From Patescibacteria group bacterium (GTDB lineage: Bacteria > Patescibacteriota > Patescibacteriia > 2-01-FULL-39-33), in contig JBAZBX010000001.1 of the NCBI GenBank assembly GCA_041671305.1, forward strand, positions 40,821 through 104,820: a stretch of DNA of 64,000 nucleotides. Reading direction: 5' to 3'. Shown piece by piece: positions 7,775 to 24,928 of this stretch. Each line of letters opens with the position of its first letter. Positions within the stretch are counted from its first letter, which is position 1. A model generated the notes under the pieces. It saw only the letters and a program-made list of their open reading frames with translations, was not told where the DNA came from and searched no databases. Position numbers and translations under genes: made by a program.

Positions 7775-7892
7775 TGGCTGGGTGTTTATGAACAAATCCG
7801 AACCGAATTTAAACAAAAATCATGATCGGGCGGGCGGAATCCCCCCCAAACCCCTCCTTCCGCCCGACCTAAACATCTGGACGGCTGAGGCG
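7775..7892. repeat. 118-bp inverted repeat, left copy (IR-L)
   Basis: 100% identical to the reverse complement of 9326..9443. Contains an internal TCGGGCGG...CCGCCCGA hairpin. Confidence 0.9.
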
Positions 7893-7904
7893 AAATAGCA
7901 ATTT

Positions 7905-8951
7905 TCAATTTTTCTTTGGCGGCGAATTTTTTTCTCCTTCTTTAACTATTTCCCTTACTTCATTGTAACTTATCTGCCTTGGCCATAATAGATTGCCGTG
8001 AGCATCATAAATTGGCAGAAGAAAATCAACCCGGTCTCCATAAATCTTTCTCATTAATGTAGCTATTTCATTTGCTTTATTTTGTTTGCTTTCATCATCA
8101 TCAACTTCTTTATACCTATGTATTTTTCTTAAAACTTCTTGTGGGACATATGGTTGTTTTTTATATAAATTATCCATTTCCTCCTCTGTCTGTTCTGCCA
8201 TGGCTCTTATTACAATACCCTTAAACCGGTCTGGAGCAATTCGAAAAGACAAAGCGTAGCCCTCAGAATAGTCAGGAATCCTTCTGTCTCCTTCTTCAAA
8301 ATATTCTTCTCTTTCTGATCCTGGTCTAGCATGGGCTCCGAAAGTATTACTTTTATACTGTAATTTTTCTCTTTTGCCAAGGTCATAATCCAATGCATAA
8401 TTGGCAATTTCAGTATTTTCCTTAAAATCTGCTGTATCAAAAATTATTCCCAAGGAGGTTTGGCTTGTTCCAATGGGTCTAAACCAATGGGCGTCTTCGA
8501 TTTTTCTTAAATCCCGACCAACAATATTGAAAAAAACAACGGCCCCCATTTTTTTTCTAACAGCGCTAACCCAATCTTGTTCAGGACTGTTAGGATTCAA
8601 TTTTCCTAATAAACCCTTTCGAAGTATACCGCCTAATTTAATGGTGGAATTATCATCTTCAAGTATTCTAACAGAATGAAATCCTGTCCCCGGTTTATTT
8701 ATATCTTGTATTTTTTCCATTATTCTCTCAACCACTTCAGGTAGTAGTTCGGGAGGAATAGGGATGTCGGAATTATCAATATTTTGATCTGCATTTTCCA
8801 CGTCCAAAATATCGCTTTCGACTTGATAATCATCAGGAGAAAAATCCTCACCCTTCTCAGGATATTTTTCTTTCAATTTTTCTTGTAGCCTTTGGGCTTC
8901 TTTTAGAGCGTCATCGTTGTTTAATCGACCGCTTTCAAATCTTTTTTCCAT
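7905..8951 (-). CDS. Hypothetical 348-aa protein (cargo of the IR-flanked cassette)
   Basis: Long ORF 5 nt downstream of the XRE HTH gene on the same strand. No recognizable domain. Confidence 0.55.
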   Translation of the reverse strand: MEKRFESGRLNNDDALKEAQRLQEKLKEKYPEKGEDFSPDDYQVESDILDVENADQNIDNSDIPIPPELLPEVVERIMEKIQDINKPGTGFHSVRILEDDNSTIKLGGILRKGLLGKLNPNSPEQDWVSAVRKKMGAVVFFNIVGRDLRKIEDAHWFRPIGTSQTSLGIIFDTADFKENTEIANYALDYDLGKREKLQYKSNTFGAHARPGSEREEYFEEGDRRIPDYSEGYALSFRIAPDRFKGIVIRAMAEQTEEEMDNLYKKQPYVPQEVLRKIHRYKEVDDDESKQNKANEIATLMRKIYGDRVDFLLPIYDAHGNLLWPRQISYNEVREIVKEGEKNSPPKKN

Positions 8952-8955
8952 AAAT

Positions 8956-9162
8956 TTATTTCAATAACTCCCACGCCTCCACTCCTAAAGCGTGAGCTAG
9001 TCTATTTAAATTTTCTAATGTGGGATTAACTTGACCACTCTCGACTCGACATATATAGGCGCGATCTATTTTACTAGAACGAAAAACATCGCCTTGCGTA
9101 AGACTTTTTTCCTCTCTTATTCTCTTGAAATTATACGCTAATTTTTTACTTAATTTATGCAT
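8956..9162 (-). CDS. XRE/Cro-C1-type helix-turn-helix transcriptional regulator
   Basis: LTQGDVFRSSKIDRAYICRVESGQVNPTLENLNRLAHALGV, a classic HTH_3 pattern; 68 aa. Confidence 0.75.
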   Translation of the reverse strand: MHKLSKKLAYNFKRIREEKSLTQGDVFRSSKIDRAYICRVESGQVNPTLENLNRLAHALGVEAWELLK

Positions 9163-9245
9163 AGTTATCCACAGTCATTTTAACAATTATTGTATATCTT
9201 AACAATATTGTAGTATACTACAATATGTAAGTGAAATTTTGCATT

Positions 9246-9272
9246 AAGAAAAAGAAAAAGTTTGATTCTGGC
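9246..9272. repeat. 27-bp inverted repeat IR2-a (partner 9533..9559)
   Basis: AAGAAAAAGAAAAAGTTTGATTCTGGC is the exact reverse complement of 9533-9559. Confidence 0.85.
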
Positions 9273-9302
9273 CAAAATAAAGTTCGAGCCGATTTTTTTA
9301 AT
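9273..9302. repeat. 30-bp inverted duplicate (B') of the recombinase 3' coding segment 10901..10930
   Basis: CAAAATAAAGTTCGAGCCGATTTTTTTAAT equals the reverse complement of 10901-10930. Confidence 0.85.
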
Positions 9303-9325
9303 CTGGTTCTTTGGCGGTTTTATTC

Positions 9326-9443
9326 CGCCTCAGCCGTCCAGATGTTTAGGTCGGGCGGAAGGAGGGGTTTGGGGGGGATTCCGCCCGCCCGATCATGATT
9401 TTTGTTTAAATTCGGTTCGGATTTGTTCATAAACACCCAGCCA
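9326..9443. repeat. 118-bp inverted repeat, right copy (IR-R)
   Basis: Reverse complement is identical to 7775..7892. The outer end CACCCAGCCA resembles the tRNA-Gln 3' end CCCGCAGCCA. Confidence 0.9.
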
Positions 9444-9512
9444 GTTTCGTTTTTCATTTTTTAAAACCGAATCCCAACCGTTTTTTGGCTTAAATTCAAA
9501 TTTTTTGCCTTG
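9441..9512. repeat. 72-bp inverted duplicate (A') of the tRNA-Gln 3' end plus downstream flank (10931..11002)
   Basis: The reverse complement of 10931-10999 is identical to 9444-9512, and the CCA is also shared. Confidence 0.85.
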
Positions 9513-9532
9513 GTTCCGATTACAATCGGAAC
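9513..9532. promoter_or_regulatory. 20-bp perfect dyad site GTTCCGATT-AC-AATCGGAAC (candidate recombinase crossover site or HTH operator)
   Basis: Perfect 9-bp arms around a non-palindromic AC dinucleotide, 40 bp upstream of the serine recombinase start. Confidence 0.35.
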
Positions 9533-9559
9533 GCCAGAATCAAACTTTTTCTTTTTCTT
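9533..9559. repeat. 27-bp inverted repeat IR2-b
   Basis: Reverse complement of 9246-9272. Confidence 0.85.
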
Positions 9560-9574
9560 TAATTCAATACAAAT

Positions 9575-11062
9575 ATGAAATACTTTCTTTATGCCCGCAA
9601 GTCGACAGACGAAGAGGATCGTCAAGTTCTTTCAATTGAAGCCCAGCTCGCGGAGTTGAAGGAGTTAGCCGCCAAAGAAAAATTGGAAATTGCGGACTCG
9701 CTCTGCGAGTCCAAAACCGCCAAAGAACCAGGCCGAAAAATTTTCGGCGGAATGCTCGCTCGGATTGAAAAAGGTGAGGCCGACGGAATTTTAGCGTGGC
9801 ACCCAGATAGATTGGCCAGAAATAGCGTTGATGGTGGAAAAATTATCTACATGGTGGATATCGGCCAGATCAAAACGCTAAAATTCCCGACTTTTTGGTT
9901 TGAGAATACTCCGCAAGGGAAATTCATGCTCAATATCGCTTTCGGCCAAAGCAAATACTATGTTGATAATTTAAGCGAAAATGTTAAACGTGGTTTCAGG
10001 CAAAAGTTAAGGCGCGGCGAATATCCCAATAAAGCGCCCATCGGCTATCTTAACGACCGAACAGCTAAAACCGTGCTCATTGATCCTCTGCGCGCCAAGC
10101 TCGTGATAAAGATGTTTAAGATGTACAACACGGGAGAATTTTCGCTTAAATTTCTTAAAGATAAGTTTTGCGATATTGGCCTGACCAGCAAGCGCGGCAA
10201 AATCCTGACTGTCGGCATGATTTCTAACATATTGAATAATCCCTTTTATTGCGGAGTATTCAAGTTTAATGGCGAAATCTACCAAGGCAAGTACGAGCCA
10301 ATTATTTCCAAGAAGCTTTTTGATGAAGTTCAGGCGGTAATGAAAAACCGAGGACGGCCGCTCGGGCAAGACAAACACGATTATGCTTTTACTGGACTTA
10401 TGAAATGCAAGTGCGGCGCCTGCATTACCGCCGAACGGCAAAAAGGCCATATCTATTATCGCTGTACGAAAAAGCTTGGAGCCTGCGACGAAAAGTATAT
10501 CCGCGAAGAAAAACTGCTGGAGCAATTCCATGGCCTTTTTCAAAAAGTTTCTTTGCCAGATGACTGGATTGACAAGATGCTCGCTAAACTCGATGAGGAA
10601 CAAAAAAGCGACATGAAGTCATCGGTAGGTCTGATTGACGAGGTAAAAACGCAAATAGGAGCCATAGAGAGCAAGCTAGATAAGTTGCTCGATGATCGAT
10701 TAGAAGGATTACTCGATAAGGACGACTATTTGCGGAAGAAGGAACAACTCATCAATCAGAAAATTGCTTTTGAGGAGAAAATCCAGTCAATCAGGCAAAC
10801 GGGAAATAATTGGCTCGAACCGATGCGGGAATTCCTTTCCGCCAATAAACAAACCAAAAAAGTCGCCAATAGCGGCGACATTCTGGAAATCCGAGCATTC
10901 ATTAAAAAAATCGGCTCGAACTTTATTTTGCAAGGCAAAAAATTTGAATTTAAGCCAAAAAACGGTTGGGATTCGGTTTTAAAAAATGAAAAACGAAACT
11001 GGCTGCGGGACCTGGAGTCGAACCAAGATAACAGCTTTCAGAGAGCTGCGTCCTACCATTAG
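9575..11062 (+). CDS. Large serine recombinase (resolvase/invertase catalytic domain, recombinase domain and zinc-ribbon)
   Basis: YARKST catalytic-serine motif near the N-terminus; CKCGACITAERQKGHIYYRC zinc ribbon; 495 aa. The last ~20 codons are antisense to tRNA-Gln. Confidence 0.9.
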   Translation: MKYFLYARKSTDEEDRQVLSIEAQLAELKELAAKEKLEIADSLCESKTAKEPGRKIFGGMLARIEKGEADGILAWHPDRLARNSVDGGKIIYMVDIGQIKTLKFPTFWFENTPQGKFMLNIAFGQSKYYVDNLSENVKRGFRQKLRRGEYPNKAPIGYLNDRTAKTVLIDPLRAKLVIKMFKMYNTGEFSLKFLKDKFCDIGLTSKRGKILTVGMISNILNNPFYCGVFKFNGEIYQGKYEPIISKKLFDEVQAVMKNRGRPLGQDKHDYAFTGLMKCKCGACITAERQKGHIYYRCTKKLGACDEKYIREEKLLEQFHGLFQKVSLPDDWIDKMLAKLDEEQKSDMKSSVGLIDEVKTQIGAIESKLDKLLDDRLEGLLDKDDYLRKKEQLINQKIAFEEKIQSIRQTGNNWLEPMREFLSANKQTKKVANSGDILEIRAFIKKIGSNFILQGKKFEFKPKNGWDSVLKNEKRNWLRDLESNQDNSFQRAASYH

Positions 11063-11073
11063 ACGATCCCGCA
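11000..11073 (-). tRNA. tRNA-Gln (anticodon CUG)
   Basis: Manual fold gives U1-A72 acceptor pair, U8, D-stem GTCT/GGAC, anticodon loop CTCTGAA with U33 and A37, T-loop TTCGACT, discriminator G and an encoded CCA. Confidence 0.8.
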
Positions 11074-13244: not shown

Positions 13245-13330
13245 CTATGATACGTGAGTTGTTTATAAGTCATTCATATTTTACTAAGATTAAGACGATA
13301 AGTCAAAAATGCAAAACAACATAATATTGA

Positions 13331-13507
13331 AGCAAGATTGGGGGTTTGGGGGAAGCACCTTTCGCCAAAGCGCGAGTGTAAGCCGAACCTCAGCCAGCAG
13401 GATGAGGTGAGCGAAACGAAGCGCGACTAAGCAAGATAAAAAACACTCCGAGCATAAGGCGAAATTGCGTCCCCCAAAACCTTTGGTTCTTTCAGTTATG
13501 AAAGAAC
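13331..13507 (+). ncRNA. Copy 1 of a ~180-nt GC-rich structured element (candidate sRNA or cis-regulatory leader)
   Basis: Near-identical to 23770..23945. Terminal GGGGGTTTGGGGGA / TCCCCCAAAACC pairing, internal helices, and a 3' hairpin GTTCTTTC-agttat-GAAAGAAC. Confidence 0.45.
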
Positions 13508-13680
13508 ATAAATTAAACTTTTTTAAAAAATGGGTTGAATATAAGAGAAATTATCCAAAATTAGATAAAATATAGGATTAATACTTCCTATCTATTGACA
13601 AAAGTACAAATATATACTATATTATAGGGTCACAATGAGTGACGGAAGCACATCACAACCAAAAAGGAGCATTGACTGTC

Positions 13681-14552: not shown

Positions 14553-14650
14553 TGCGACCTTCACCAACCGGCAGAAGCACGATCGCCATCGTGACTTTCT
14601 GCCCCCAACTGAATTTACAAATTCTCATTTGCAACTTCTGAGGGTTATAA

Positions 14651-14684
14651 ACAAAAGACGGAATAATTCCGTCTTTTGTTTTAA
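14651..14684. terminator. Bidirectional rho-independent terminator
   Basis: AAAGACGGAAT-aa-ATTCCGTCTTT perfect hairpin followed by TTTGTTTT, between convergent genes. Confidence 0.7.
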
Positions 14685-14704
14685 ATTAAAAATTAAAAAT
14701 TAAC

Positions 14705-18808: not shown

Positions 18809-19430
18809 ATTCCTTTTCTGGATGTTTTGTAATTATCATTCTGTAATCTCTGCCGGGAACTGATTCCAACACAATATCGGCCTGTTCCCTAAAATCAGAA
18901 ATTATTTTTCTGAATGTTTTATCCTCTTGCAATAGAGAGAGTATAGGATAAAAATAAGCACTCCCACCTGGCTTAAGAGTTCGAATAACTTCACTAAAAG
19001 TATCCCTATATTCCTGCTCATGCGTCTGCAAAAAAAACGGTATTGCCAAATAAGATATTTCAAAGTCAAAAGTATCATCTTTAAATGGCATTTCCTGCAC
19101 TAATCCAGATATGACATCGCCATGATGCTTCTTTCTTTCGTTAGAACTAAATAATGTGCCCAAGGCTGGATTTAAAGATATCACCTCAATGCCGTGCTTT
19201 TCCGCCTCTTTGGAAAATACGCCCTCTGACCCGGAGCCAATATCTAATCCACACATACCCTTCATATCGTCGATTGGTAAATTAAGTATTTCACGAGTCT
19301 CCTCAAAGGACCAATTTGTTTGGGCTTCTCTTCTTTTAAGCGGATCCTTGAAATCTTCAATCCGAGTCTTTCTATTAAATGGCTTTTCTTCGTTGGTAGC
19401 TAAAAAACTAGTCTCTCTATTTTCTATCAT
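18807..19430 (-). CDS. Class I SAM-dependent methyltransferase
   Basis: Motif I LDIGSGSEG plus acidic motif II. Confidence 0.65.
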   Translation of the reverse strand: MIENRETSFLATNEEKPFNRKTRIEDFKDPLKRREAQTNWSFEETREILNLPIDDMKGMCGLDIGSGSEGVFSKEAEKHGIEVISLNPALGTLFSSNERKKHHGDVISGLVQEMPFKDDTFDFEISYLAIPFFLQTHEQEYRDTFSEVIRTLKPGGSAYFYPILSLLQEDKTFRKIISDFREQADIVLESVPGRDYRMIITKHPEKE

Positions 19431-20497
19431 ATATTTTTACAAACATTTTTTATATCTTTCAACGACTCCACTGTCACGAGCTGACTTCGCAATTCCTTGG
19501 CATTTTCCCAGCCCTTCACATACCACAGCAGATGTTTTCTCAACTCTATTATACCATGAGTGTCTTTGGATTTAAATGCCGCTTCGGCGTGCTGGATTAT
19601 GACCTTCTTAATTTTGGCTTTATCAAATTTCTGATATTTTCCCGTATTTAGATAATCCTTGATCTGCTTAAATATCCAAGGCTTGCCATAAACTCCGCGA
19701 GCAATGCCGAATCCATCAACTCCGGTTTTTTCCCACATGATTTTTGCATCCATAGGAACATTTATGCCACCATTTCCAAGTACTATGCCTGGAAATTCTT
19801 TTTTGATCTTTTTTATCATCTCATAATCAATCTCGGCATTAAACGGATTTTCATACGGCCGGCCGTGAATCATAATGGCGGAAATATTTAATCCTTTCAT
19901 TTTTTTGACAAAATCAAGCGCGGTTATAATCTTATTATCTTTTTTATAATTGTCATCCCGAGGGAGGATGTAATCAGCCGACCGTGGGGATCCCGCGGGA
20001 TTGCCACACTTCGCCCTTGAGGGCTCGCTCGCAATGACATTGATACTAGATCTTATTTTGACAGAAACTGGCAATTTTGTCCCCGAGAGAACCGCTTCTA
20101 CTATTTCTCTACATTTTTCTAAATCTCGCATCAAAGTCACCCCACCGCCATGTCCAGCAACTTTCTTGGCTGGACAGCCAAAATTAATGTCTATGCCATC
20201 AAAACCGGCCTTTTCTGCCAGTTGTGCCGCCTTAGTAAATTTCTCCGGATGTTTACCGAATAATTGAATTACAATCGGACGTTCATCTTTGGAAAATTTT
20301 AAAAATTCCAAAGTCTTTTTGGAATCATAGTGCAAACCGTCGGCCGAAACCATTTCCGTATAAACCACATCAGCGCCGTATTTCCTGCAGATTTGGCGAA
20401 AAGCCGAATCAGTCACTCCCGCCATAGGAGCAAGCGCTAGAATTGGTTTTTTCTTTAGTCCGCCTGTGGCAGAAAGTTTTGACCAAAAATTTTTCAT
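19427..20497 (-). CDS. tRNA-dihydrouridine synthase (Dus family) carrying an in-frame 30-codon insertion
   Basis: ALAPMAGVTDSAFR...FDGIDINFGCPAKKV...GGGVTLM TIM-barrel Dus motifs. The extra SINVIASEPSRAKCGNPAGSPRSADYILPRDDNYKK segment is encoded by the palindrome at 19951-20039. Confidence 0.85.
   Translation of the reverse strand: MKNFWSKLSATGGLKKKPILALAPMAGVTDSAFRQICRKYGADVVYTEMVSADGLHYDSKKTLEFLKFSKDERPIVIQLFGKHPEKFTKAAQLAEKAGFDGIDINFGCPAKKVAGHGGGVTLMRDLEKCREIVEAVLSGTKLPVSVKIRSSINVIASEPSRAKCGNPAGSPRSADYILPRDDNYKKDNKIITALDFVKKMKGLNISAIMIHGRPYENPFNAEIDYEMIKKIKKEFPGIVLGNGGINVPMDAKIMWEKTGVDGFGIARGVYGKPWIFKQIKDYLNTGKYQKFDKAKIKKVIIQHAEAAFKSKDTHGIIELRKHLLWYVKGWENAKELRSQLVTVESLKDIKNVCKNI
19951..20039. 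repeat. 89-bp GC-rich imperfect palindromic element inserted in-frame in dus (RPE/MITE-like)
   Basis: TGTCAT...ATCCCGCGGGAT...ATGACA. About 60% GC against AT-rich flanks. The length is a multiple of 3 and the reading frame is preserved. Confidence 0.6.
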
Positions 20498-20579
20498 TAT
20501 TATATATTGACAGAATATTTAATTTAAAATAAGGTAAATTATAGTACACTTAACAATTCACCCTGAGGGAGAAAAAAAC

Positions 20580-20741
20580 ATGAAATCTGTTCCATGGGAC
20601 TTCAAACTTATGCTGGGATTTTTGGGATTATTTCTCCTGGTCATTATAGTACAGGAGGCATGGGAGCTTATCCACATCCCGTGGGTTTACAACCTGCTCA
20701 TGAGAATAGGCGAAGGTTTGTCGGCTCTCAATCGCAGTTAA
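20580..20741 (+). CDS. Possible small membrane protein (53 aa), not in the ORF track
   Basis: GAGGGAG lies 8 nt upstream of the ATG; hydrophobic core FLGLFLLVIIV. Confidence 0.25.
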   Translation: MKSVPWDFKLMLGFLGLFLLVIIVQEAWELIHIPWVYNLLMRIGEGLSALNRS

Positions 20742-20802
20742 ATCTGCGGCCACACGACGACAACTTGCACCTGGAGCGACACCCTCTCGCTTCCGGTGCT
20801 TT

Positions 20803-22170
20803 TTATTTTTTCTTCAAATTATACCCTTCGGGAGTATCTTCAATAATATATCCGAGTTTATTTATCTCATCTCTTAACTCATCAGATTTCTTAAAATCCT
20901 TGGACTTCTTCGCTTCTATTCTCTGTTCGGCTAGATCAGTTACTTTTTGAGGGATTTCTTCTATCTCAATTTTATCCAAATTTAATCCTAAAACTCTATC
21001 AAAATCCAAAAGTGTGGCTTTCTTGTCTTCGTCGGCAATATCGCTTTTTATAACCTCCCAAACCAAGGCCATCACCTGTGGCATCGCCAAATCATCATTT
21101 ATTAATCCAATAAATTTATTCTGAAATTCTTTATTAATTTTTCCTACCTTATCAATTCCCGCTACAAAATCATTCAACTTCATTCTGGCTGTCTTGGCGC
21201 CTTCAAGCCCTGCCCAAGTGAAGTTCAATTGGCTACGATAATGCGATGTTAAAAATAAATATCTTAAATCAAGAGCCACGAAGCCTTTTTCTTCCAAATC
21301 CTGCAACCGATAAAAATTATTTTTTGACTTGCTCATTTTTTCACCTTCAACCATCAAAAATCTAGTGTGAAACCAATAATCAACAAACTTGACCCCATTA
21401 GCGCACTCGCTTTGAGCAATTTCACATTCATGATGCGGAAAAATATTATCCTCACCGCCAGTATGAACATCAAAGGTTTTTCCCAAATACTTCATGGACA
21501 TAGCACTACATTCAATATGCCAACCAGGAAATCCTTTATGGCCGAATGCATCCCACTCCATCTGTCTTTTTTCACCCTCAGCTGAAAATTTCCATAATGC
21601 AAAATCGGTTGGATTTTTCTTTTCCGGATTAATCTCCACTCTGGCGCCTTCTTTCAATTTATCCAAAGTATTGCCAGATAATTGGCCATATTGTGAAAAC
21701 TTACTAGTATCAAAATAAATACCGTCGGATGTTTGATATCCATAACCCTTATCAATCAAGACTTGGACTAATTCAATCATTTCTTGAATGTGATCAGTCG
21801 CCTTGCAAATTACATTCGGTTCCAAAAAATTCAACTTTTTTCTATTGGCCAAATAAATCTCAGTAAAATATTCAGCAATTTCATGAGCGCTTTTACCGCC
21901 AGCTTTGGCCGCTTTTTCCAATTTATCCTCACCTGTATCGCCATCAGAAGTTAAGTGCCCCACATCGGTAATATTCATTACGTGCCCAACATTATATCCG
22001 CTATATTCAAAGACACGACGCAAAATATCGGAATTAAAATAATTCCAAGCGTGCCCCAAATGATCATAGCTATAAACGGTCGGACCGCAAGTATACATGC
22101 CAACCTGGCCTTTTTTGAGCGGTTTAAAGTCTTCTTTCTTTCTACTTAAGGTATTGTAAATCTGAAGCAT
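20803..22170 (-). CDS. cysS: Cysteine--tRNA ligase
   Basis: HLGHA (HIGH) and KMSKS motifs with a CysRS Zn-binding cysteine pattern; 455 aa. Confidence 0.95.
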   Translation of the reverse strand: MLQIYNTLSRKKEDFKPLKKGQVGMYTCGPTVYSYDHLGHAWNYFNSDILRRVFEYSGYNVGHVMNITDVGHLTSDGDTGEDKLEKAAKAGGKSAHEIAEYFTEIYLANRKKLNFLEPNVICKATDHIQEMIELVQVLIDKGYGYQTSDGIYFDTSKFSQYGQLSGNTLDKLKEGARVEINPEKKNPTDFALWKFSAEGEKRQMEWDAFGHKGFPGWHIECSAMSMKYLGKTFDVHTGGEDNIFPHHECEIAQSECANGVKFVDYWFHTRFLMVEGEKMSKSKNNFYRLQDLEEKGFVALDLRYLFLTSHYRSQLNFTWAGLEGAKTARMKLNDFVAGIDKVGKINKEFQNKFIGLINDDLAMPQVMALVWEVIKSDIADEDKKATLLDFDRVLGLNLDKIEIEEIPQKVTDLAEQRIEAKKSKDFKKSDELRDEINKLGYIIEDTPEGYNLKKK

Positions 22171-22311
22171 ATTTGATTTTTATTAATTAAACTAATTTTA
22201 GAATTTTTTGGGCTTTTTGGCAAGTTTTGTCAAATAAAAAGAAGGCTTGAGTAAGGATTATCGTCTCCAATACTCAAGCCTCAAAAAGGGGGCTACCAGC
22301 GGATTATCCAC

Positions 22312-22692
22312 CTACCTCACTGCCAGCTCGTGAGCCGGCCGTTGTGCTTTGTGATACATCCCAGTCATCACCTTCTCTCCGTCCGTCAAGCTGCACACAG
22401 CACACAGCACATACTTCGGGAAAATTTGACTTCCCCTGAATTGTCCACACGCATCACAAAGTTCCATTGCAGCCCGAAGATTGGCCTGAGCATGCTCCTT
22501 TGCTCCCTCCGAGCCAAATTCAACTATCCACTGAGCTGCCCGACGCAACCGAGAGTTATTGATACAGGGATCTTCAACGCCGTCCCTGTCCGGACTATTC
22601 AATAGCTCCTCCGCCTTGTCCAAACAACCAAGAACTCCGCGCGCGTCTTGAATGCGCTTCTGTTTCTCATCACAACAAACCAACTCCGACAT
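22312..22692 (-). CDS. Cysteine-rich hypothetical protein (GC-rich island)
   Basis: GGAAGGAG lies 8 nt upstream of the ATG; 126 aa with about 9 Cys including CDACG and CAVC pairs; GC about 55%. Confidence 0.5.
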   Translation of the reverse strand: MSELVCCDEKQKRIQDARGVLGCLDKAEELLNSPDRDGVEDPCINNSRLRRAAQWIVEFGSEGAKEHAQANLRAAMELCDACGQFRGSQIFPKYVLCAVCSLTDGEKVMTGMYHKAQRPAHELAVR

Positions 22693-23152
22693 GTTTCATT
22701 CTCCTTCCAACGTCTGAACCCTAAAATGTACGACACAAAACAAAAAATCAGCTCCGACCGACAGGGTGGGCTGACTGACTCTCTTATCTAAATTCTTCTA
22801 GACAACGTCAATACTTCCACCCCTGGGCAAGAGTAGCAACAAGCCTAACAAATTTTGAGTGAAAGTTTTATTCATATACTTATATAAGTATAATAGCAAA
22901 TATATCAGAAAAGTCAAATACCTTCTTTATCTCAAAGCCACTTTTCTAGAAAAGTGGCGCAAAAGTCGCAAGCAGACAAAATCATGGCCAAATTTTCTCT
23001 GCATTCGCTAAGCCACATGCGCCACTGCTGTGGCTATATGTTGGCTTTTAACGCTCATGCTTAGAGAAAATTGGCACCCGCCCGAACGTACCGTTCGGTA
23101 CGGGCGGGCAATATTTTGTAATGCTTGCATGGGTGCAGAAAGTTGAATTTGA

Positions 23153-23186
23153 ATAAAAACCCGCACCCTAAATCGATGGGTGCGGA
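23153..23186 (-). terminator. Rho-independent terminator (minus strand)
   Basis: CCGCACCC-taaatcgat-GGGTGCGG followed by a T-run on the minus strand, after the stop at 23212. Confidence 0.65.
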
Positions 23187-23211
23187 CTGTAACGCGTGTT
23201 GAAATGTTTCA

Positions 23212-23553
23212 CTATTGGGCGAAGAAAGCCTTGCGGATTTTCCGTCCCACGGAGGAAAGTATCTTCTCGAGATCATGGGGCATGTCTTCACAGGACATAG
23301 TGAGGGCAAAATAATTTCCGCTCTTCTGCTCGATGAAGCTTTCAAGATTGATTGACTCGCCATTGTTTGTCATGGAGTCAAGGGCGAGTTTGATTTTTGC
23401 CCAATTTTCCATATTTTGCGGATGCAGTTCGAAATACATGATCCATTTATCCGCACTTGGGCGCCTGGAAGCTGCAACGACTCGCCACTCTTCAGATCCG
23501 CCCACACTACAGACGGGAGCTATCCTCAAATTGCCAATTTTTCGTATTCGCAT
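23212..23553 (-). CDS. Hypothetical protein (GC-rich island)
   Basis: AAGGAGG lies 7 nt upstream of the internal ATG (MRIRKIG...). The longest ORF extends to 23673. Confidence 0.4.
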   Translation of the reverse strand: MRIRKIGNLRIAPVCSVGGSEEWRVVAASRRPSADKWIMYFELHPQNMENWAKIKLALDSMTNNGESINLESFIEQKSGNYFALTMSCEDMPHDLEKILSSVGRKIRKAFFAQ

Positions 23554-23769
23554 CGCTTGTTCCTCCTTTGGTTGTGCGACGGAATCTCGTATGTTTTGAG
23601 AGCACGGCTGCTCTAAGGAACTATTCCTCGGAAAAGCAGTTAATTTAACGACCTTACCGAGAAATGGTTTCATATTATAATATAATAAATTTAGACAAAT
23701 GTCAAAATTCTCGTAAGTTGTAATTAAATATTTTTATATTATGTATTTTTTAAAAAGCACAAATATCTA

Positions 23770-23945
23770 AGCAAGATTGGGGTTTGGGGGAAGCACCTTT
23801 CGCCAAAGCGCGAGTGTAAGCCGAACCTCAGCCAGCAGGATGAGGTGAGCGAAACGAAGCGCGACTAAGCAAGATAAAGAACACTCCGAGCATAAGGCGA
23901 AATTGCGTCCCCCAAAAGCTTTGGTCCTTTCGCTTACGAAAGGAC
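23770..23945 (+). ncRNA. Copy 2 of the ~180-nt structured element, about 75 nt upstream of metA
   Basis: About 98% identical to copy 1 over the body. The 3' hairpin GTCCTTTC-gcttac-GAAAGGAC carries compensatory T>C and A>G changes relative to copy 1. Confidence 0.45.
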
Positions 23946-24019
23946 AGAAGAAATATTTGACCAAATCCGGAAACCATTGATATAATTAACTAGATTTAGT
24001 TAATAATCCATTATTCATT

Positions 24020-24928
24020 ATGCCAGTAAACGTCCCCGACAGTCTCCCAGCCGTAGGAATCCTAAAAAAGGAAAATATTTTTGTCATGGAGCAATCACGC
24101 GCCTCACATCAAGATATTCGTCCACTACGTATTGCCATTGTAAATATCATGCCTCTCAAATTAGTCACGGAAACACAACTTCTGCGCCAGCTTTCTAATT
24201 CCCCGCTTCAAGTGGAAATTGACTTGGTTCATATGGCCGAACACCAGTCCAAAAACACTCCCAAAGAACATTTGGATTTTTTCTACAAAACATTTGATCA
24301 AATCAAAAATCAGAAATACGACGGCCTGATTATTACCGGCGCGCCAGTGGAAATGATAAATTTTGAGGAAGTTGATTATTGGCCGGGCATCACAAAAATA
24401 ATGGAATGGAGCAAAACCAACGTGACTTCTACACTCCACATCTGCTGGAGCGCGCAAGCCGGATTATATTATCATTACGGAATCAACAAACATCCCCTGG
24501 AGGAGAAAATGTTCGGGGTTTTCTGGCACAAAGTCAATGATTCAAAATGTTTGCTGATGAGAGGATTTGATGATCAATTTCTGGCGCCTCACTCCAGACA
24601 TACTGGCCTAGACCGTAATGATATTATAAATAATAAAAACATTAAGCTTGTCGCCGAGTCAATTGAAGCTGGGCCGTACATTATTGTATCGCGCGATCAT
24701 AAACAAATCTTTGTGACTGGACACAGCGAATATGACGCGCTCACCCTCAAAGGAGAATATAATAGAGACATTGAAAGAGGATTAAACATAAATATTCCCA
24801 ACAATTATTTTCCTAATGACGATCCGACCAGACAGCCGGAAGTGCTTTGGCGCTCTCATGCCAATCTGCTTTTTTCCAATTGGCTTAATTATTACGTTTA
24901 TCAAGAAACTCCATTTGATTGGAGTTAA
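24020..24928 (+). CDS. metA: Homoserine O-acyltransferase (MetA family, HTS/HTA)
   Basis: Near-colinear with E. coli MetA: [23 protein letters not shown]...ITGAPVE...[12 protein letters not shown]...FLAPHSRH. Confidence 0.9.

Follow-up and report, generated by a model that had tools for sequence, protein, structure and literature searches.

A predicted leader-peptide attenuator before an exchangeable gene slot, and an adjoining 1-kb indel, between cysS and metA of a Patescibacteria group bacterium

We describe the DNA that lies between the genes cysS (20803-22170, minus strand) and metA (24020-24928, plus strand) in a 64-kb stretch of the genome of a Patescibacteria group bacterium, an origin with which the genes present and their best matches agree. 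This whole stretch is called the window hereafter, and positions given without a label refer to it. A preliminary description had seen in the region 22250-23700 one foreign-looking, GC-rich island that was bounded by hairpins and may have been co-mobilised with a structured element of about 190 nucleotides (nt). Comparison with related genomes and metagenome contigs (labelled L002 to L093) indicates that this ‘GC-rich island’ is in fact two unrelated, independent units side by side. The first would be an ancestral slot at cysS, gated by an attenuator and holding a gene that recombines, and the second a lineage-specific insertion; we regard this combined explanation as moderately probable.

The slot upstream of cysS and its gene

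The first unit (22917..22232, minus strand) would be an ancestral transcription unit, complete in itself, in a slot directly upstream of cysS. Its features, and the promoter that follows it, are listed below from the metA side towards cysS.

22890..22917, minus strand: sigma-70-like promoter of the leader and of open reading frame (ORF) A, TTGACT / 16-nt spacer / TG-TATTAT (promoter scan)
22798..22875, minus strand: upstream open reading frame (uORF) of the leader, 25 codons, MNKTFTQNLLGLLLLLPRGGSIDVV followed by a stop (sequence reading)
22736..22866, minus strand: putative attenuator RNA (RNAalifold and per-species folds)
22866-22859, minus strand: segment 1, ACUUUCAC, within the KTFT codons of the uORF
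22820-22813, minus strand: segment 2, i.e., the box GUGGAAGU, within the GGS codons, with the central hairpin next
22774-22748, minus strand: hairpin of the attenuator terminator, with its U-run at 22747-22736
22708-22701, minus strand: Shine-Dalgarno sequence of ORF A, GGAAGGAG
22312..22692, minus strand: ORF A, Cys-rich zinc-ribbon protein of 126 amino acids (aa) (homologues, alignment and model)
22232..22282, minus strand: intrinsic terminator of A, 12-bp stem then U-run (sequence reading)
22195..22223, minus strand: cysS promoter, TTGCCA / 17-nt spacer / TAAAAT (promoter scan)

ORF A belongs to a small protein family that a word-indexed search, which retrieved A alone, did not reveal. Indeed, an exhaustive HMMER search was needed to obtain six homologues (100-126 aa, 31-59% identity, E-values from 9e-37 to 1e-4), and a profile search gave no further members beyond these seven sequences. 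In their alignment, C79, C82, G83, C97 and C100 are invariant and form the pattern CxxC-x14-CxxC, a NSPDRD loop motif is conserved, and the only invariant Cys are the four zinc-binding ones; ORF A contains eight Cys in total, and not about nine as first counted, while its length and its Shine-Dalgarno sequence had been correctly described. The AlphaFold2 model of A (predicted local distance difference test, 82.6; predicted template modelling score, 0.71) displays a helix at 8-31, an acidic loop, a helix at 47-76, a zinc-ribbon hairpin and a helix at 98-125, and A is predicted from this model to be a helical hairpin with a C4 zinc ribbon and a C-terminal helix. Attenuation of cysS through the Cys codons of ORF A was ruled out, first because A is a conserved folded protein in which only the four zinc Cys are invariant, and second because A has its own terminator and cysS its own promoter.

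All A-family genes are located immediately upstream of cysS in the same orientation, and their loci also have dus, the gene of a 160-aa protein and T4CP in common with the window. The structured element is absent from all of these loci (L084-L091). Thus, since A, its promoter and its leader are syntenic with cysS in element-free relatives, the A half of the region is not co-mobilised cargo. Synteny in relatives that lack the element was the observation named in advance as speaking against a foreign island, and it holds for the A half, which stands beside cysS in L084-L091; absence from a close relative, as expected for a horizontal island, was found for the block 22921-23955, which L091 lacks. 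These comparisons of sequence and gene order argue that A is a real conserved protein, old rather than foreign cargo. Note that no A homologue was detected in the closest species-representative genomes found via cysS (L002, 76%; L003, 68%).

The GC content of 22250-23700 was initially estimated at about 55% and measures 45.8% (ORF A, 52.5%; ORF B, the orphan gene of the second unit, 47.1%; the spacer between A and B, 42%), compared to a mean of 38.7% (standard deviation, 4.3%) for the 64-kb window. The region is still the GC peak of the window, and the richest 380-nt stretch of all 64 kb (53.4%) starts at 22271. The composition and codon analysis suggested as a check also places both genes above host values, with a GC content at third codon positions (GC3) of 0.54 for ORF A and 0.535 for ORF B compared to 0.39 +/- 0.05 in 31 long host ORFs, so that A and B both have the atypical composition expected of a horizontal island. 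By codon position, the GC of ORF A is 0.61/0.43/0.54. Since the A homologues also exceed their own loci by 3-9 GC points, the raised GC of A is partly a family trait, and it was probably reinforced in the window by an allele imported from a GC-richer relative. The ORF list includes no recombinase or transposase gene inside or beside the region. A non-coding RNA was also considered for the GC-rich region and rejected: no Rfam match was found at gathering or E-value thresholds, and the ORFs with coding-type GC (GC1 > GC2) and the A homologues with conserved Cys disfavour it.

The exchange of the slot gene is documented by two metagenome contigs from two other data sets (L082 and L083), which are ~100% identical to the window from 23713 to 22722. 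This identity spans the promoter, gene and terminator of B, the structured region S2 that follows them, the A promoter and the attenuator, and it ends at an allele breakpoint (22722/22721) one base past the region of the attenuator U-run. Beyond it, the A allele of L082 and L083 displays 71% nt and 59% aa identity to the window A, with 0.72 synonymous (dS) and 0.30 nonsynonymous (dN) substitutions per site and a ratio (omega) of 0.41; these contigs then have ~110 extra nt, and identity to the window resumes at the A terminator. The substitutions are of every type and evenly distributed along the gene, which, with a dS of 0.72, indicates old alleles swapped by recombination and not hypermutation. 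Hypermutation by a diversity-generating retroelement was likewise rejected, with no adenine bias and no reverse transcriptase or template repeat. The window A allele looks imported by recombination. As for the extra stretch after the alternative A (L082 1402-1515; L083 1380-1493), which is absent from the window allele, it holds a possible 37-aa ORF, MQEATACSIPSVFGIVGDEQLSAELESVDNIPEHYYW.

Other relatives differ in the slot, too. Between L087 and L090, cysS and dus are 78-79% identical and A merely 34%, and in L003 the same leader is followed by an unrelated 84-aa ORF. Each lineage examined has a terminator of its own behind the slot gene and after it the cysS promoter (the region of which has 90% nt identity between the window and L091), and the slot is therefore a separate transcription unit. 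Judged from these alignments, the gene behind the attenuator is exchangeable: A would evolve very fast and be replaced by recombination via the conserved leader on one side and the terminator/cysS-promoter flank on the other. Such recombinational replacement would account for the atypical GC, and also for why strains that match elsewhere carry two deeply diverged alleles. What looks like a GC-rich ‘foreign island’ can thus be an old locus with a recombination-swapped allele, which bears on composition-based island calls in AT-rich reduced genomes. In L002, an unrelated 116-aa ORF is found upstream of cysS without the leader.

The cysS gene next to the slot is itself a mosaic. In L091, metA has 90% aa identity to that of the window and the first 17 cysS codons are identical, while the remainder of cysS is 48% identical; after codon ~17, the gene is of the L084 type, with 75% identity to L084 and 45-48% to the window (window 22122-22170 within cysS 20803-22170; L091 1211-1814; L084 6053-7504). 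From the sequences, this switch looks like a xenologous replacement with its breakpoint within the gene. The locus resembles allelic cassette or replacement hot spots with conserved flanks (e.g., polymorphic immunity or surface-protein loci that recombination keeps variable) in its sharp breakpoints, with flanks at ~100%, a gene at 59% and a dS of 0.72, in the non-homologous slot gene of L003, and in the replacement of the neighbouring cysS by a 45-48%-identical version after about codon 17. It differs from them in that no silent donor copies, recombinase, toxin partner or secretion signal were seen here. A second variable spot lies between cysS and dus, where a small ORF of 80-133 aa, on either strand, differs from relative to relative (window 20498-20802; L084 7558-7893; L087 8024-8266; L090 4787-5065; L002 11409-12195).

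The leader between the promoter and the slot gene

The leader, which measures ~150 nt and is conserved with its promoter, was found in the window, L091, L087 and L090 by upstream alignment and in L003 by pattern search, with an equivalent of the leader/A promoter kept in each of the four relatives and one leader per genome in all sequence examined. Its uORF runs to 25-28 codons in 5/5 lineages and codes for 5-7 Leu, most of them in a row. The corresponding peptides (MNKTFTQNLLGLLLLLPRGGSIDVV in the window, MNKTFTQNLLGLLLLLTQGGSIDIA in L091, MKTFTQKSGLLLGLLLPMGSGSFIGA in L087, MNTFTKNSALLLQLLPANGGSFISV in L090 and MKTFTINNGLLLLSLLRVSQVEVFSINR in L003) share the consensus MxKTFT..LLL.LL..GGS. 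The Leu run is preserved while its codons differ synonymously (TTG, TTA, CTA, CTC and CTG), and the synonymous sites in ACU UUC AC and GGU GGA AGU are frozen across the five lineages. The uORF ATG is invariant and lies 6 nt past the -10 box in three of the five (L003, L087 and L090), and a leaderless transcript is therefore implied.

At the RNA level, RNAalifold recovered the terminator and helix 1:2, in which ACUUUCAC pairs with GUGGAAGU; the box is followed by a variable hairpin and then by the terminator hairpin with its U-run. When the 3′ strand of the terminator was withheld from the fold, 5/5 species gave a long-range 2:3 antiterminator instead, in which the other terminator strand (5′) pairs with the box region in a species-specific manner (CAGGG-UGG/CCA-CCCUG, GGGAGUGG/CCGCUCCC, GUGGAAG/CUUCCAC and GCAAGUGG/CCACUUGC). 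The mean energy of the 2:3 duplex is -14.3 kcal/mol for cognate pairs vs -10.7 kcal/mol for non-cognate ones, and only 2/120 permutations equal the cognate stability, namely the identity and the swap of the near-identical window and L091.

This organization is close to that of the amino-acid operon attenuators (E. coli leuL, trpL and hisL; Rfam Leu_leader, Trp_leader and His_leader), with which it shares a short uORF with a codon run for one amino acid (LLLL in E. coli leuL), four RNA segments with mutually exclusive 1:2, 2:3 and 3:4 helices, a uORF stop near segment 2, and, directly ahead of the regulated gene, an intrinsic terminator that ends in a U-run. In contrast, it has no sequence or covariance-model similarity to the Rfam leaders, its uORF appears leaderless, its host genome is of the Patescibacteria type, and the regulated gene codes for a fast-evolving zinc-ribbon protein (an unrelated small ORF in L003) and not for leucine biosynthesis or charging. 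Rfam gave no match for the leader even at E <= 10 on 281 nt, including T-box and Leu, Trp and His leaders, and no report of leader-peptide attenuation in the Candidate Phyla Radiation was found in the literature searched. As read from sequence and predicted pairings, the leader appears to have the layout of a classical ribosome-mediated attenuator, previously undescribed.

In the mechanism that we propose, transcription from the promoter of the first unit would yield a short Leu-rich uORF, leaderless in most lineages, that overlaps an attenuator RNA with three mutually exclusive helices, i.e., 1:2, the 2:3 antiterminator and the 3:4 terminator with its U-run. If it works in analogy to the trp, leu and his attenuators, a ribosome stalled at the Leu run would mask segment 1, and the freed segment 2 (GUGGAAGU) would pair with the terminator 5′ half, so that transcription could read through to the slot gene. 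Where translation instead reaches the uORF stop unhindered, the box would be covered and the terminator would form. Both the translation of the uORF and the charging of Leu-tRNA as the signal are suggested by this analogy.

Several observations weigh against this interpretation of the leader. In the window and L091, the ATG is 14-15 nt past the best -10 box and has no Shine-Dalgarno sequence, and uORF translation is less certain in these two. Helix 1:2 is invariant, so covariation is nil, and the peptide code could account for its conservation; moreover, the leader sequences are five in number, two of them near each other, which puts covariation statistics at their limit. An A homologue occurs without the leader in L084, and L002 has neither A nor leader. 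Finally, the slot gene has no known link to leucine, unlike in classical attenuators where the regulated gene serves the sensed amino acid, and cysS has its own promoter after the terminator.

Two other explanations of the leader were considered. It could be a ligand- or tRNA-binding riboswitch with an incidental uORF, e.g., a reduced T-box through which the cysS neighbourhood would respond to tRNA-Cys. Indeed, the expression platform is of the terminator/antiterminator type, a conserved UUGC motif lies within helix 1:2, and the invariant GUGGAAGU contains UGGA, which would match the 3′ end, UCCA, of a tRNA whose discriminator is U73. However, the UGC is out of frame in Leu codons that vary synonymously, which points to selection on the peptide; the UGG is paired and not bulged in the predicted antiterminator; the sequence 5′ of the box is ~60 nt long and coding, which does not suit a T-box; and to the Rfam searches, negative for T-box and any other family, is added the separate cysS promoter behind a terminator. 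A riboswitch is thus quite unlikely in our opinion. Alternatively, the uORF would be the gene of a small functional peptide (signal-peptide-like, or hydrophobic and toxic) with its own terminator, the RNA pairings being by-products. While the conserved peptide and the lack of covariation in helix 1:2 are what such a gene would give, its hydrophobic run of ~9 residues is too short for a membrane span, the synonymous sites named above are frozen in all five lineages, and the 2:3 pairing co-varies with the terminator sequence; we hold this explanation to be very unlikely.

As to what the leader would control, the fold of A calls to mind DksA/TraR (PF01258), with its helical hairpin and acidic loop (NSPDRDxxED), CxxC...CxxC and C-terminal helix, and hhalign gave 64% probability over a 27-column zinc finger (LC[DE]ACG..IFP..LCxxC) for the F-plasmid TraR. 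However, none of the 7 A-family members matches PF01258, the spacer between the CxxC pairs is 14 in the A family vs 17 in the TraR and DksA sequences used for comparison, the DxxDxA motif is absent from the family, and the hhalign probability for DksA is 1%; structural similarity of A to DksA or TraR was not found either. A was therefore not filed in DksA/TraR, for lack of a PF01258 match, different spacing and the DksA score, and shows at most a weak zinc-finger resemblance to TraR. In a further, improbable reading, Patescibacteria of this lineage would reserve the slot beside cysS, behind its leaderless Leu-codon attenuator, for interchangeable and fast-diversifying small Cys-rich zinc-ribbon proteins, and the A family would be a TraR/DksA-like factor switched on by falling Leu-tRNA charging, i.e., a minimal starvation regulator, kept polymorphic by recombination, for organisms that obtain amino acids from a host.

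In the attenuation model favoured here, the attenuator-gated slot is a variant of leader-peptide attenuation in an uncultured lineage, controlling a new seven-member zinc-ribbon family. In the Candidate Phyla Radiation, almost nothing has been charted of cis-regulatory RNAs or of starvation sensing. A hypervariable small protein under a leaderless leader-peptide attenuator would, if true, be a regulatory circuit open to direct tests in an uncultured, host-dependent lineage.

The 1-kb indel and the structured element

The second unit would consist of S2, the B cassette, to which a promoter, a Shine-Dalgarno sequence and a terminator belong, and an element copy at the metA-side end. Its features are as follows, together with the other copies of the element.

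22921..23955: block of 1,035 bp absent from L091 (BLAST of L091 vs the window)
22938..23135, minus strand: structured region S2, predicted three-way junction with closing stem, including hairpin 23078-23110, and terminal hairpin 22938-22959
23154..23185, minus strand: intrinsic terminator of B, hairpin 23161-23185 then UUUUU (reading and fold)
23212..23553, minus strand: ORF B, orphan of 113 aa
23568-23562, minus strand: Shine-Dalgarno sequence of B, AAGGAGG
23677..23705, minus strand: sigma-70-like promoter of B, TTGACA / 17-nt spacer / TATTAT (promoter scan, 11/12 positions match)
23762..23949, plus strand: element copy 2, structured repeat of ~190 nt (copy 1 is at 13323-13511)
L092 3424-3630, minus strand: element copy 3 (JGI 3300014208, contig Ga0172379_10047787)

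The limits of this unit come from L091, of which positions 1-554 correspond to window 24514-23956 and positions 553-729 to window 22920-22741. In this contig, metA has 81% nt identity, window position 23956 is joined directly to 22920, and the -35 boxes of the metA and A promoters stand back to back (GGTCAA-AT-TTGACT). The junction therefore makes 22921-23955 a single contiguous indel, which contains S2, the terminator, gene and promoter of B, an AT-rich spacer and, at the metA-side end, element copy 2. From this alignment, the block appears to be a lineage-specific insertion between the divergent metA and A promoters. Against this, a single 1.8-kb contig is all that decides between an insertion here and a deletion in L091, the insertion could have occurred as two or three separate events instead of one block, and neither terminal repeats nor a target duplication beyond a possible AT dinucleotide were found at the junction. 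No repeats flank 22921-23955 except the structured element itself. The site of copy 1 offers a comparable case, since L003 has 100 nt between T4CP and dnaX vs 1,460 nt in the window, where element copy 1 and a GC-rich island (island 1) are located.

ORF B is a true orphan, as identical copies alone were retrieved among 5.8 billion proteins, and no matches were found in Pfam, PHROGs, PADLOC, NCBIfam, PDB, phages, plasmids (tblastn) or IMG/VR. Its single-sequence model is of low confidence and gave generic fold matches. Its strong Shine-Dalgarno sequence and its clean terminator were confirmed as described, and this 113-aa start is also the call of the ENA record; an alternative start, an in-frame ATG right after the -10 region, would give 153 aa (23673..23212, minus strand). 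No relatives of B, or of two further ORFs labelled C and D, were detectable in the databases searched, and A, B, C and D gave nothing below E = 0.01 in PHROGs, PADLOC, NCBIfam and Pfam. A phage, plasmid or defence origin of any of the four was rejected, as no matches were obtained, and no kinship was found among them or with the small ORFs of L002.

The two long GC hairpins thought to border the island are both real, and neither is a border: 23161-23185 is the B terminator, and 23078-23110 is an arm of S2. The latter, ~200 nt long and downstream of the B terminator, is strongly structured, with fold z-scores of -8.1 (minus strand) and -7.0 (plus strand). Nothing in Rfam matches it, and L082/L083 carry the identical sequence. 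Island 1 is also strongly structured towards its 3′ side (14553-14704; z = -7.65), with a long GC hairpin at ~14570-14603 and then a separate terminator at ~14649-14681, a layout that mirrors the one downstream of B.

As for the structured element itself, copies 1 and 2 are 95% identical. Copy 3, which came from a metagenome 20-mer scan with one real match (L092) and one chance match (L093), shares 98% identity with copy 1 and 94% with copy 2. The element has a fold z-score of -5.8, and a compensatory change between copies 1 and 2 in its 3′ hairpin suggests a functional RNA or DNA hairpin; no Rfam match was found, and it is absent from IMG/VR. The ends common to the three copies are AATAT(C/T)(T/G)AAGCAAG ... 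GAAAG(A/G)ACA, of which the conserved AATAT is a possible -10 box; in that case, the element would be a small-RNA gene. In L092, the copy is located in AT-rich intergenic DNA between the contig end and a 196-aa lysozyme-like gene, upstream of a promoter and of this gene, infB and rbfA. We also considered the two window copies as att-like borders of a 10.4-kb integrated element, an idea that was ruled out because the intervening T4CP, dus and cysS are syntenic in element-free relatives.

The proximity of the element to GC-rich genes raises the question of a joint transfer, and the whole of 22250-23700 could be one horizontally acquired GC-rich island that moves with the element. As had been noticed, both window copies (13323-13511 and 23762-23949) adjoin GC-elevated orphan genes; GC and GC3 are raised in both ORFs, and B, S2 and copy 2 do form one block with respect to L091, in agreement with the co-mobilisation first suggested. 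However, the A half is already contradicted by the synteny of A and its leader with cysS in element-free relatives, and the L091 junction divides the supposed island at 22920/22921. In addition, the element points toward its cargo at locus 1 and in the opposite sense at locus 2, neither a mobility gene nor the terminal repeats or target duplication of a single mobile unit were found, and the search for such islands near other element copies gave in L092 none within the visible sequence (3.4 kb on one side, 170 nt on the other). A single island is thus unlikely.

Separate arrivals of the element, the B cassette and S2 are possible, though we would rate them below an even chance. The AT-rich space between the divergent promoters would then be a permissive hot spot, and the element an independently spreading small repeat or small-RNA gene. 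This would be consistent with an element that is multi-copy in three contexts, that occurs by itself in L092, in AT-rich intergenic DNA ahead of a promoter, and whose orientation to the cargo varies between loci, as well as with other small GC-rich insertions in the genome (e.g., an in-frame palindromic insert in dus). On the other hand, 2/3 element copies adjoin orphan cassettes, copy 2 ends ~6 nt from the metA-side boundary of the indel, and no intermediate state (B without the element, or the element without B) was found at the site.

Compared to known repeats, the element resembles miniature inverted-repeat transposable elements (MITEs) or small-RNA repeats with cargo in being ~190 nt long, structured and multi-copy with 94-98% identity, and in its location in AT-rich intergenic DNA near promoters and at one end of a 1-kb indel. 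In contrast with these, no transposase, target-site duplication or terminal inverted repeats were found for it, and its orientation to cargo is inconstant. A 1-kb indel with a structured repeat at one end is a concrete case in which the spread of orphan genes and small structured repeats in these genomes can be studied.

Other observations in the window

Two features outside the region deserve mention. The dus gene (19427-20497) contains an in-frame insertion of ~27 codons, ASEPSRAKCGNPAGSPRSADYILPRDDN, at about 19960-20040 (minus strand), which is absent from all relatives; its DNA is GC-rich and partly palindromic (ATTGCGAGCGAGCCC...GTGGCAAT), resembling a small repeat inserted in coding sequence. 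Further away, long and almost perfect inverted repeats (123 nt at 99%, 75 nt at 100% and 30 nt at 100%) cluster in 7775-11005 around a large serine recombinase of 495 aa (9575-11062), whose gene overlaps a tRNA-Gln (11000-11073, minus strand) at its 3′ end.

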